DNA of 64,000 nt from an uncultured Ruminococcus sp. (GCF_902766885.1 NZ_CACXFS010000036.1), one strand, 5' to 3'; shown: positions 47,705-51,700, counted from the stretch's first letter. The notes: generated by a model not told the origin, from the letters alone. Translations and numbers: made by a program.

Positions 47705-48552
47705 TAAAGATTGTTTGCTATATCGGCAAAGTTTTGCAAAGAAAGCTTTTCTGCTCTCGCATTAAGAGGAACATCTGATTTTTCAAGAATCTCGGCAGTT
47801 TTGGATTTGTCAAGAGAAAGTCCCGAACTGAGTGAATTTGAAATAACCTTTCTTCTTTGTGAAAAAGAGGCTTTGACAACCGAAAAGAACTTTTTTTCAT
47901 CATTCACCATTACAGGCGGCTTGTCTAAAACATTGAGCCTTATTACTGCTGAATCTACTTTTGGTGCGGGCATAAACGAACCTGCGCTGACTGAAAAAAG
48001 CATTTCGGGTTTTGCGTAGTAGTTTACAGAAACGGTTACTGCGCCGCTCTGACGTGAGCCGACCTCTGCACAGATTCGCTGTGCGGCTTCCTTCTGCACC
48101 ATAACTGTGATTGCAGATATCGGGAGTTTATCCTCTAAAAGCTTCATTATTACGGGTGAAGTTATATAATACGGAAGATTTGCGCAGACCACAACCTCCA
48201 TTCCCGAAAATTCATCTTCAATCAGTTTATGAAGATTGGTTTCAAGCACGTCAGCATTGACGACTTTCAGATTGTCATACTCTCCGAGTGTTTCTTCAAG
48301 TACGGGCAAAAGCCGCTTATCAAGCTCAATTGCTACGACCTTATCGGCAAGCTTGCAAAGCTCGTTGGTAAGCACTCCGATTCCCGGACCGATTTCAATT
48401 ACTCCTACTCCCTTGCCTGCTCCCGAAAGCTCAGCCATTCTCGGACAGACTGACGGATTAATCAGAAAATTCTGACCGAGTGATTTTGAAAAGGTAAAGC
48501 CGTGGCGGCTTAAAATATCTTTTATTGTACCGATGTCGGATAATCTGTTCAT
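47704..48552 (-). CDS. rsmA: 16S rRNA (adenine1518/1519-N6)-dimethyltransferase
   Basis: 282 aa with LGQNFLINPSV and SAM motif VIEIGPGIGVLT. Confidence 0.92.
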   Translation of the reverse strand: MNRLSDIGTIKDILSRHGFTFSKSLGQNFLINPSVCPRMAELSGAGKGVGVIEIGPGIGVLTNELCKLADKVVAIELDKRLLPVLEETLGEYDNLKVVNADVLETNLHKLIEDEFSGMEVVVCANLPYYITSPVIMKLLEDKLPISAITVMVQKEAAQRICAEVGSRQSGAVTVSVNYYAKPEMLFSVSAGSFMPAPKVDSAVIRLNVLDKPPVMVNDEKKFFSVVKASFSQRRKVISNSLSSGLSLDKSKTAEILEKSDVPLNARAEKLSLQNFADIANNL

Positions 48553-49871
48553 TTTAAAATTCTCAAGCCTTTCGGGTATTTATTTTTAAGTCTGCCGTTT
48601 GACGCTTTGCCAAAGCCGGTTGTCATTCCATTAACGCAGACCGCTGTAAAGCCTTTTACATTATCAGGAACGGTAATTTCCTCACCGTGTAGAAACGCTT
48701 TGATTTCATTGCAGTTTACGTCAAAATCGACTGCGTTACGGCAGGAATCTTTCTTTGCACAGGTAAATACACTGTGGTGAGGCTCAATTCTGTTTTTAAG
48801 AATTTCTCCGAGAATTACCCCTGCACGAAGTACTGACAAGCCTTTTATATCAAAATTAAATTTCTTTGGCAGAATTATGATTTTATCTTTTACTACTTTT
48901 ATATTTTCACCGAACGGACGGTTGTAAAACAGGCTGTCATAAAAATCAAGGAATTCTTTACCGACCTTGCAAGATGAAATATCCGGAATGTCTACTTTGA
49001 CATTCTCGCCCTTTTTACGCAGTCTTGCGGCAAAGTGGCCCTCTCCTCCGTCCATCGGGAAAATTCTTCTTGCATAATCAAGCGTTGGTCTGCCGAAATT
49101 AACGCCTGCGTCTTCAAGCTCAAAGTCAGGATTTTCAGAAAGAAAGCGAGTTATAACCCCCTCGTTTTCCTCAACGGAAAAAGTACAGGTGGAATACACC
49201 AGCACACCGCCGCTTTTGAGTGCTTTTTTGGCACTGTTAAGAATATTTAGCTGACGTTCAGCACAGCTTTTAACGTGCTCCTCACTCCACTCGGTCTGCG
49301 CCTCCTGATTTTTGCGGAACATTCCCTCGCCGCTGCAAGGTGCGTCAACAAGCACTCTGTCAAACTGATTTGCAAGGCGTTCGCAGAGAATATCGGGGTA
49401 GCAGTTTGAAACAACTGCATTTGAGATTCCCATACGTTCAATATTCGATAAAAGAATATTAGCTCTGTTTCTGACAATTTCATTGCTCCATAAAAGACCG
49501 GAGCCGTTTAATTTTGCTCCTATTTGCGTACTCTTTCCACCCGGAGCGGCACAAAGGTCAAGCACAAAGTCGCCCTCCTCAACACCGAGCATTTCAACTG
49601 CCGAGGTTGCAGACGGCTCCTGAATATAAAATGCACCGCAATGATGCAAAGGACTGTTGCCGAGTGATACAACATCATCGGGAATGTAAAATCCTTCTTT
49701 GCAAAAAGGCGTATTTTCAAGCTCAAAATCGAGCAGGCTTTTAAGCTTATCGGGATAGCATTTGAGTGTATTTACACGAAGTCCTCTGAAATTATCGGCT
49801 TCGTAATATTTTAAAAATTCGCTGTATTCATCACCTAAAAGTGATTTCATTCTAAATAAAAATTTATCCAT
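48549..49871 (-). CDS. rsmF: RsmB/RsmF-family rRNA cytosine-C5 methyltransferase
   Basis: 440 aa with DLCAAPGGKSTQI, DAPCSGEGMFRK and YSTCT, plus a C-terminal PUA-like extension. Confidence 0.82.
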   Translation of the reverse strand: MDKFLFRMKSLLGDEYSEFLKYYEADNFRGLRVNTLKCYPDKLKSLLDFELENTPFCKEGFYIPDDVVSLGNSPLHHCGAFYIQEPSATSAVEMLGVEEGDFVLDLCAAPGGKSTQIGAKLNGSGLLWSNEIVRNRANILLSNIERMGISNAVVSNCYPDILCERLANQFDRVLVDAPCSGEGMFRKNQEAQTEWSEEHVKSCAERQLNILNSAKKALKSGGVLVYSTCTFSVEENEGVITRFLSENPDFELEDAGVNFGRPTLDYARRIFPMDGGEGHFAARLRKKGENVKVDIPDISSCKVGKEFLDFYDSLFYNRPFGENIKVVKDKIIILPKKFNFDIKGLSVLRAGVILGEILKNRIEPHHSVFTCAKKDSCRNAVDFDVNCNEIKAFLHGEEITVPDNVKGFTAVCVNGMTTGFGKASNGRLKNKYPKGLRILK

Positions 49872-49899
49872 TGAATAATTCCTGAATTTAGGTTAATAA
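49871..49899 (+). promoter_or_regulatory. Candidate sigma-A promoter for the Q/N micro-ORF transcript (TTGAAT-17 nt-TAATAA)
   Basis: ttgaat aattcctgaatttaggt taataa. The match is weak and AT-rich, so confidence is low. Confidence 0.35.
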
Positions 49900-49922
49900 T
49901 ATGGTCAAAGGGAGGTGTTAAT

Positions 49923-50051
49923 ATGAATTTTAATCAGAACAACAATCAGAATAACAACCAGAACAACAATCAGAACAAGAACCAGAACAACAACCAGAAT
50001 AAGAATCAGCAGAACAACAATCAGAACAAAAGTCAGCAGAACAACAGATAA
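49923..50051 (+). CDS. Unannotated 42-aa Asn/Gln-repeat micro-protein
   Basis: Below the ORF-track size cut-off. Hand translation gives MNFNQNNNQNNNQNNNQNKNQNNNQNKNQQNNNQNKSQQNNR. AAAGGGAGGTG lies 5 nt before the ATG. The DNA is an imperfect ~12-nt tandem repeat (cagaacaacaat) of about 9 units. Confidence 0.5.
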   Translation: MNFNQNNNQNNNQNNNQNKNQNNNQNKNQQNNNQNKSQQNNR

Positions 50052-50233
50052 TACTAATTTTCCATAGAAATACGGAATAGATTTTCGAGCAGATTTTGTG
50101 CTGTTCGAATAATGAACCACATGAAGGCTGACGCCTTCCGAGGATTCAGTATGAAGAACAGTGCAAAATATGCCGGGAAGATTTTCGTATTATCTGTGGA
50201 ATGTTAGTATAGATACATTCTGCACAATAGCGG

Positions 50234-50280
50234 CAAGCCGTGGGCGCAATGGAGCGTTCACGGCTTGTTTACTTTTTCTT
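50234..50280 (+). terminator. Plus-strand rho-independent terminator ending the micro-ORF transcript
   Basis: caagccgtg-ggcgcaatggagcgtt-cacggcttg followed by tttactttttctt. The U-tract occurs only on the plus strand. Confidence 0.6.
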
Positions 50281-50282
50281 AA

Positions 50283-50945
50283 TTAGTAACCGTATTCTTC
50301 GCCGATGATGATTACTTTGATTCTGTTTACGTGGCGCTGTTGTGCGCATACTACATAGTTACAGCAGATTCTTGCGTCGCTGTGACAGCCCTCGCAAAGT
50401 TCAGCATTTTCTTTTCCGAGTGAAACGCAACTTCCCTCTTTTGCGCAGTATGTATCGCAGTTAAGACGGATTGTGTTCTGCGGAGCGGCTACAGTCTTTA
50501 CACGCTTGATTGCTTCGTCAATATTCTTTACAAGTTTATTGATTCCGCATACAACAACTACGCTTTTCGGTCCGTAAAGAATTGCAGCTACACGGTTTGA
50601 GTTGCCGTCAACGTTGTAAAGCTCACCGTTTTCGGTTACGGCATTTGTGCTTGTGAAAAATGCGTCGGCAGTAAAGGTTTTGCGGTAAACCTCCTCAACC
50701 TGTTCACGAGTTATTCCAGGAGCAGACCTATCAAGATAATTATAGTCGGAGGAAGTTATTATGTCATAAACTCCTGTTTCCTTTAAGGTAACCGAGCCGC
50801 CGCTTGAAATTACGTCGCCTTTATTAATCAGCGTTTTTACAAGCTCGCAGGCTTCTTCTTTAGTATTGCAGAAATAAGGCTCCATTTTGTTGCGCTTTAA
50901 ATTCTGCATTGTTTTATCTATTCTTGCTTTGAGTTCGTCTGTCAT
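50283..50945 (-). CDS. LUD (lactate-utilisation, DUF162) domain protein with a C-terminal Cys-rich segment
   Basis: 220 aa with NTKEEACELVKTLINKGDVISSGGSVTLKETG, typical of stand-alone LUD proteins. The Cys cluster is CDTYC..C..CEGC..CC. Confidence 0.65.
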   Translation of the reverse strand: MTDELKARIDKTMQNLKRNKMEPYFCNTKEEACELVKTLINKGDVISSGGSVTLKETGVYDIITSSDYNYLDRSAPGITREQVEEVYRKTFTADAFFTSTNAVTENGELYNVDGNSNRVAAILYGPKSVVVVCGINKLVKNIDEAIKRVKTVAAPQNTIRLNCDTYCAKEGSCVSLGKENAELCEGCHSDARICCNYVVCAQQRHVNRIKVIIIGEEYGY

Positions 50946-51157: not shown

Positions 51158-51700
51158 TTATGGTTCTACAAACGGGACACCGAAATACTGTGCCACCGAC
51201 TGAGAAAGATTGCGTGCAATGTTGTTGATGTTGTCACGAATCCACTGTGCTTCCTCGGGATTGTCGTGGTAAGCAACTTCAATTAACGCTGTCGGAGTTT
51301 TTGTGCGCCGCACTTCTGCAAGCGTAGTAGTGGGAATTATGTCAACGTCTGAGGGGTCGGGATAAACTTTTTTATAATTATCCTGAAGAATCTCCGCAAA
51401 GCGTTTGCCGGCTGTGCTTGTAGGGTAATAATAAATGTCTGCACCTGTGTATCTTCCTGCCGCACTCGGCGGTGCGGCGTTGCTGTGAATTGCGAGATGC
51501 AAATCGGGATTGGCTTGGTTTGAATCTGCTATCGCCTGCGAAAGAGTCATATCAGGGCGGTTGCGGTCTACTTCTATTCCGCTTGCCTCAAGATACGGCT
51601 GCATTGCGTCAGCTATAAGATTCATATAATATTCTTCGTTACCCCCGTCAACGTATGGATTATACTCCTGAAGCGAGGGACTGAGATATACTTTAGGCAT
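51158..51700 (-). CDS. N-acetylmuramoyl-L-alanine amidase (Amidase_3 family), no signal peptide
   Basis: 180 aa with LHLAIHSNA, ALIEVAYHDN and the overall MurNAc-LAA pattern. Confidence 0.72.
   Translation of the reverse strand: MPKVYLSPSLQEYNPYVDGGNEEYYMNLIADAMQPYLEASGIEVDRNRPDMTLSQAIADSNQANPDLHLAIHSNAAPPSAAGRYTGADIYYYPTSTAGKRFAEILQDNYKKVYPDPSDVDIIPTTTLAEVRRTKTPTALIEVAYHDNPEEAQWIRDNINNIARNLSQSVAQYFGVPFVEP

Follow-up and report, generated by a model that had tools for sequence, protein, structure and literature searches.

A 64,000-nucleotide (nt) stretch of DNA from an uncultured Ruminococcus sp. (GCF_902766885.1, NZ_CACXFS010000036.1; hereafter the window) carries on its plus strand a short, repetitive open reading frame (ORF) for a 42-residue microprotein made up mostly of asparagine and glutamine (N/Q). 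We consider it highly probable, from its conservation in related genomes, that this ORF is a real gene, and the microprotein is most likely translated. Judging from a forespore-type promoter and from analogy with known spore protein genes, the balance tips slightly toward a small, basic, disordered protein of the spore core that would be made in the forespore.

An N/Q microprotein gene between rsmF and a LUD-domain gene

The ORF sits in a 411-nt gap between rsmF and a gene for a LUD-domain protein, both of which lie on the minus strand and are confirmed by Pfam, in agreement with an earlier prediction made from the sequence alone (the original prediction). The locus comprises the following elements:

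48549-49871, minus strand: rsmF (PF01189 and partner domains, Pfam)
49873-49877, plus strand: -35-like element GAATA, adjoining the divergent rsmF start codon (49869-49871, minus strand)
49895-49901, plus strand: -10-like element AATAATA, 17 nt 3' of GAATA, of the forespore sigma-G/F type xATAxTA
49911-49917, plus strand: Shine-Dalgarno (SD) sequence GGAGGTG, 9 nt after the -10-like element and with a 5-nt spacer to the ATG
49923-50051 including the stop codon, plus strand: coding sequence (CDS) of the 42-residue Asn/Gln/Lys microprotein
50052-50209, plus strand: inserted long-hairpin dispersed repeat resembling a miniature inverted-repeat transposable element (MITE), bounded by TACTAA...TTAGTA; in alignments with close relatives, the indel covers 50052-50212
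50232-50279, plus strand: intrinsic terminator of the microprotein gene, a 16-pair stem (50232-50269) followed by a T-run
50283-50945, minus strand: LUD-domain gene (Pfam)

The SD sequence, 5-nt spacer, ATG and 42-residue plus-strand ORF are present at 49911-50051 and, with an SD, an ATG and a terminator of its own, the last detected for the plus strand only, the locus has the make-up of the stand-alone plus-strand unit that had been proposed. The encoded peptide consists of 24 Asn, 11 Gln, 3 Lys and one each of Arg, Ser, Phe and Met (57% Asn, 26% Gln, 10% Lys/Arg). By codon count, N and Q make up 35 of the 42 residues (83%), one fewer than the 36 first reported; the peptide is hydrophilic and extremely rich in nitrogen, contains neither Glu nor Asp and bears a net charge of +4. 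Tandem Repeats Finder recovered the imperfect ~12-nt tandem repeat described before (period 12, 9.6 copies, 76% matches), and a 24-nt unit, corresponding to N-Q-N-N-N-Q-N-K, fits better (period 24, 3.7 copies, 88% matches).

The reading frame is maintained across the genus and in other families

Counterparts were sought in 151 species genomes of the genus and in 300 genomes of the order, the latter from 29 further genera and about 16 families. As protein homology tools were defeated by low complexity, blastn and pattern searches on genomes were used in their place. With the ORF region as query, blastn found a counterpart in 83 of the 151 genus genomes, the window's genome included, and in 46 of the 300 genomes of the order outside the genus.

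All 37 distinct genus loci have an SD-led ATG (GTG in two) in the N/Q frame and a stop codon just past the repeat, encoding 35-59 residues. Translated in the same frame, the SD region itself reads K/Q-G-G-V-x-M across these loci, i.e. SD, spacer and start stay in register. An SD-led start in the N/Q frame was likewise found in 19 of 19 inspected loci from other lineages of the order (38-72 residues), which are built from differing nucleotide repeat units, and in both sets of loci the N/Q frame closes a few codons past the repeat end. Alignment gaps between orthologous CDSs are multiples of three in 69% of cases (mainly 3, 6 and 9 nt) and multiples of 12 in 6%; for the DNA upstream of the CDS, the share of multiples of three is 20%. 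AAC and AAT interchange as Asn codons, and CAG accounts for 97% of Gln codons in the family versus 84% genome-wide. In the peptides of the genus, a Lys or Arg recurs roughly every eight residues, the end is basic or aromatic, acidic residues are very rare (Glu and Asp at 0.5% each) and the net charge is +1 to +6, with N+Q at ~80% across the family.

The original prediction had also envisaged a hypervariable locus, changing by slippage in 12-nt steps. At the shallow depth available (a metagenome scan for strain variants gave one contig), this expectation was not borne out: the window and its close relatives G116, G012 and L094 all encode 42 residues, and between species the length drifts from 35 to 59 residues through changes of mostly 3, 6 or 9 nt.

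Searches of Pfam and NCBIfam with four family members matched no family at E <= 10. In phmmer, none of 530 word candidates was scored, a miss for which low complexity and the composition filter account. Exact look-up of eight family peptides in a 15-billion-protein collection found none of them (L061 was entered with wrong minus-strand coordinates); the exact window peptide is present in the ESM Atlas, beside unnamed clusters of 35-47-residue hypothetical proteins. Rfam returned only chance-level matches for 49600-50500 at E <= 10, the CrcZ-like ones among them reaching 15-16 bits versus a gathering score of 95.

An open frame by itself is weak evidence for coding at this locus, because all three frames of the repeat are open. 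Taken with the weak CrcZ-like matches, the lack of HMMER protein relatives and the missing exact peptides in the 15-billion-protein collection, this could point to a non-coding A/C-rich tandem-repeat RNA, e.g. a sponge for an RNA-binding protein, or to a slippage-prone DNA repeat, in which the ORF would be incidental. We regard such an origin as very unlikely, given that SD and ATG always stand in the N/Q frame, even across families with different repeat units, that indels occur at the codon level, and that the proteins themselves preserve a Lys/Arg periodicity and a basic C-terminus. Moreover, the composition filter explains the HMMER miss, and the ESM Atlas holds the exact sequence. For the question of coding, the in-frame SD and ATG, the codon-sized length changes and the protein-level features of the aligned loci weigh more than the open frame.

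ORF lists give, instead of the microprotein, a 71-residue V/L/I-rich ORF on the opposite strand (49905-50120, minus strand), which exists as previously noted and is the longer of the two. That this mirror ORF should be the true gene, encoding a small membrane protein, is scarcely credible; we rejected it on account of its GTG start codon, which lies inside an inserted repeat that close relatives do not have. It also has no conserved SD and no Pfam match, and the promoter and terminator of the locus face the opposite way.

In 24 of the 37 genus loci, a hairpin that runs out into a T-rich stretch comes after the stop codon. The distance from stop to terminator in relatives is ~4-20 nt, and ~20 nt in those without the insertion. 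An Asn/Gln codon run followed by a terminator recalls a leader peptide or attenuator sensing the charging of Asn/Gln-tRNA, as had been suggested. This reading is highly improbable and was rejected: the window has no plus-strand gene downstream, the next gene being the convergent LUD-domain gene, there is no conserved antiterminator alternative, the terminator of relatives stands directly past the stop, and the gene is kept with its own promoter in differing genomic contexts.

The upstream region resembles forespore promoters

A motif of the form G[ATC]ATA-17/18-xATAxTA precedes the N/Q gene in 37 of 37 distinct genus loci, 33 of them recognized by a regular expression and four by eye, the latter four having a small hairpin inserted between the -10 element and the SD. 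Short hairpins of ~16-27 nt were observed between these two elements in L007/L042, L043 and L013. In other species, the -10 element appears as CATACTA, GATACTA or AATACTA (e.g. GAATA-17-CATACTA), and most order-level loci combine GAATA or GTATA, a distance of 17-18 nt, and CATAATA or CATACTA. The sigma-G consensus of Bacillus (B. subtilis) is GHATR-17/18-CATXHTA. By this comparison, the predicted microprotein promoter has the sequence and geometry of Bacillus sigma-G promoters. In Clostridia, the promoters recognized by SigF have much in common with those of SigG (PMC7438776), so the predicted promoter is assigned here to the joint sigma-G/F type. The conserved forespore-type promoter fits the earlier suggestion of a possible association with spores.

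The motif was calibrated within the window's genome by requiring an SD and a start codon within 16 nt and by using 60 column-shuffled motifs as a control. The combination of motif, SD and start occurs seven times, compared with 1.8 +/- 1.4 times (maximum 5) for the shuffled motifs. The matches precede genes for:

the N/Q microprotein
GPR (gpr; TIGR01441, 300 bits)
a bitopic, membrane-anchored M23 peptidase, best NCBIfam match SpoIIQ
a YetF/DUF421 protein
two unknown small proteins
rubredoxin

A relaxed scan also picked up spoVT. The same genome has a sigG-like gene (409.6 bits), GPR and one small acid-soluble spore protein (SASP) of the alpha/beta type (C41:11047-11223), and R. bromii forms spores (PMC5814915). 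From the promoter sequence, we judge expression of the microprotein in the forespore reasonably probable.

Apart from the open frames of the repeat, several observations weigh against a spore protein made in the forespore. The assignment of the putative promoter rests on a short, AT-rich motif, and the same bases match a sigma-70-type promoter at 9 of 12 positions (TTGAAT-18-AATAAT). The sole alpha/beta-type SASP gene, intended as a positive control, misses the strict motif and shows a -10-like AATACTA only. About 45% of the sampled genus genomes, including the complete genome G002, are without a detected N/Q gene, and all of these, complete ones included, retain gpr. As 140 of the 151 genomes of the genus carry GPR (TIGR01441), and 269 of 301 across the order do, it offers no contrast for a phyletic test against the N/Q gene. 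Finally, since the microprotein has no Glu, it has no GPR-type cleavage site.

The sigma-70-like match by consensus scan and the many gpr-carrying genomes without the N/Q gene would suit a real small protein made vegetatively from a housekeeping sigma-A promoter, with a role outside the spore such as nucleic-acid or ribosome binding or stress protection. We consider this unlikely. The conserved -35 core is GxATA and not TTGACA, the TTG being lost in many orthologs (ataaGAATA, atatGTATA); the -10 element drifts toward CATACTA or GATACTA, not toward TATAAT; and in this genome the motif accompanies gpr, the SpoIIQ-like and YetF-like genes and spoVT. For the forespore reading, the absence of the N/Q gene from genomes that still carry gpr implies that the gene is dispensable for sporulation.

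Several other genes of this genome (G000) preceded by the motif, in strict or relaxed form, were noted. L046, at C35:18175-18345 (minus strand), is another candidate for a small forespore protein: this 56-residue ORF follows a flawless GAATA-17-CATACTA motif that has an SD 5 nt downstream, and neither Pfam nor NCBIfam matched it. On C17 (minus strand), GTATA-17-CAATATA with an SD 5 nt downstream precedes a 91-residue ORF for a small, very hydrophilic, basic protein, possibly of spore type. An unknown 142-residue protein on C78 (minus strand), a contig shared with the YetF-like gene, follows GTATA-17-GATAATA with an SD 6 nt downstream. The alpha/beta SASP gene of this genome has a long leader containing a hairpin. 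In the window itself, a 180-residue Amidase_3 protein (51158-51700, minus strand), which may be a CwlD-like sporulation amidase, has GAATA-17-TAGATTA 9 nt before its SD in a relaxed scan.

No sigma-70-like promoter for rsmF was found on the minus strand of the gap (49872-50282). For this reason, rsmF may be co-transcribed with the LUD-domain gene, which would yield a transcript that crosses the microprotein gene in antisense orientation.

The structured 3' region is a mobile insertion

The region 50052-50285 folds with -100.7 kcal/mol (z = -10.4 versus shuffles), and nearly all of this energy comes from one ~160-nt hairpin. Three 3' hairpins described in the original prediction are real, although not separate, being nested parts of this one structure. 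In G012, G116 and the metagenome contig OIEG01009489.1 (L094), the gene is 97-99% identical and 161 nt (50052-50212) are absent; the empty sites consist of the stop codon, a C, TACATTCTG and the terminator. Other copies of the ~160-nt repeat occur at about 15 places in another species (G003), at C80:22211-22343 in the window's genome, in G010 and in G012. Every copy examined has the termini TACTAA...TTAGTA and forms a long hairpin (-47 to -75 kcal/mol), with stem sequences that vary and pairing that is kept. All copies are TA-flanked, and a target-site duplication at the present site is not cleanly reconstructable from the empty sites. An IS630-type (DDE_3) transposase was not found in the draft genomes G000, G003 and G012. 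The element at 50052-50209 thus combines three features of MITEs, namely terminal inverted repeats, dispersed copies and empty sites in relatives, and we conclude from these sequence comparisons that it is a lineage-specific, recently inserted mobile MITE-like dispersed repeat and not part of the gene.

In G062 (L019), 37 nt similar to the right-hand end of the hairpin repeat were observed right after the stop codon, at the insertion site; they point either to an old insertion that has since lost its interior or to an insertion hot spot.

The very stable fold had been the attraction of another proposal, a dual-function small RNA (sRNA) with a conserved structured 3' domain. The idea loses its basis once the structured 3' region is recognized as a mobile insertion outside the conserved gene: what folds is a dispersed repeat, with no copy at this site in G012, G116 and L094 and with copies elsewhere in G003, G012, G010 and G000. 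The 3' region also has no Rfam match. Frame, SD and ATG are kept in the 37 genus loci, whereas the 3' structure, which the original prediction had set beside the frame as a possible conserved feature, is not; we rejected the dual-function sRNA on the ground that its structure is not conserved at the locus across species, and hold it to be extremely unlikely.

The insert shares with the RUP elements of Streptococcus pneumoniae and the Correia elements of Neisseria its size of ~160 nt, terminal inverted repeats, dispersed copies and presence/absence polymorphism, as well as a long hairpin potential, intergenic insertion and co-transcription into a 3' untranslated region (UTR), predicted in the case of the insert. 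It bears no sequence relation to either and has no Rfam match. In this strain, the mobile hairpin repeat was inserted downstream of the microprotein's stop codon and upstream of the terminator, whereby the mRNA would have gained a long structured 3' UTR.

Relation to small spore proteins and a possible role

AlphaFold, run on the single sequence, gave a low confidence score (pLDDT) of 60.8 and a model without secondary structure, and the microprotein is predicted to be disordered. In its extreme Asn/Gln content and predicted disorder, it resembles the prion-like N-domains of yeast Sup35 and Ure2. It differs from these in being a free 42-residue peptide with regularly spaced Lys/Arg and almost no Tyr, Gly or Ser, and its regular positive charges may oppose amyloid formation.

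SspE (SASP_gamma, PF04259), the gamma-type SASP of Bacillales, serves as an amino-acid reserve for outgrowth. To our knowledge, Clostridia are usually said to lack this gamma-type storage SASP. Both SspE and the microprotein are small, very rich in Gln/Asn, internally repetitive and without a stable fold, and both genes are monocistronic, with a strong ribosome-binding site (RBS), their own terminator and a sigma-G-type promoter, predicted in the case of the microprotein. The two are not homologous in sequence (no match to the SASP_gamma profile). The microprotein, from Oscillospirales hosts, has half the length of SspE or less, a more extreme composition (~80% N+Q in the family) and a basic instead of near-neutral charge, and, being free of Glu, it offers no GPR cleavage motif (E-F/I-A/G-S-E type). 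It does not match the Pfam profile of alpha/beta-type SASPs (PF00269) either.

The minor SASPs of Bacillus subtilis, SspG-SspP and Tlp, are 34-71 residues long. According to the work of Cabrera-Hernandez and Setlow on ssp genes, minor SASP genes are reportedly monocistronic and sigma-G-dependent, with a strong RBS and a terminator, and dispensable for sporulation. The microprotein falls in the same size range and shares with them the gene layout and the dispensability; it has no sequence similarity to them, none of them is an N/Q repeat, and its own location in the spore is putative. By this analogy, the anatomy of the microprotein gene, monocistronic with a strong SD, a forespore-type promoter and its own terminator, is that of ssp genes. 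Operationally, the microprotein would be classed with the small spore proteins, where it probably represents a new family, functionally analogous, not homologous, to gamma-type SASP. No published account of an N/Q microprotein family emerged from literature searches for N/Q-rich spore proteins of Clostridia or R. bromii.

We infer the sigma-factor dependence, spore location and function of the microprotein from sequence, and propose the following course of events. RNA polymerase with sigma-G, and/or sigma-F, would transcribe the gene in the forespore from GAATA-17-AATAATA; the strong SD would drive translation, and the gene's own hairpin terminator would end the monocistronic transcript. The product would be an abundant spore-core peptide that may store nitrogen-rich amino acids, fill the dehydrated core through hydrogen bonding, or do both. 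By analogy with SspE, such a storage or core-matrix function is a tentative proposal. More broadly, and with similar reserve, Oscillospirales, including the keystone R. bromii group, might widely possess Asn/Gln-only forespore microproteins that fill the niche of gamma-type SASP as a nitrogen and amino-acid depot, possibly in the form of a reversible hydrogen-bonded (polar-zipper or glass-like) core matrix, and that are broken down at germination by some protease distinct from GPR.

Implications

N/Q microproteins are absent from family databases and are rarely reported by gene callers. Standard tools miss the present gene in several ways: the composition filter of HMMER removes it, the 15-billion-protein collection does not contain the exact peptides, and ORF lists favor the mirror ORF. 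If the gene is what we propose, it would exemplify an annotation blind spot for small low-complexity genes. The hairpin insert illustrates on a small scale how a mobile repeat can remodel the 3' UTR of a gene of this kind. New in the present analysis are a member of the family in the culturable R. bromii group, the calibration of the promoter motif within a genome and the recognition of the 3' structure as a mobile insertion.

Strains of the R. bromii group are culturable and sporulate (PMC5814915), which makes the proposal testable at the bench through this locus. Sporulation is a driving force in how many gut commensals spread and persist, and the N/Q microprotein, if our proposal holds, would be a new component of the Clostridial spore core.

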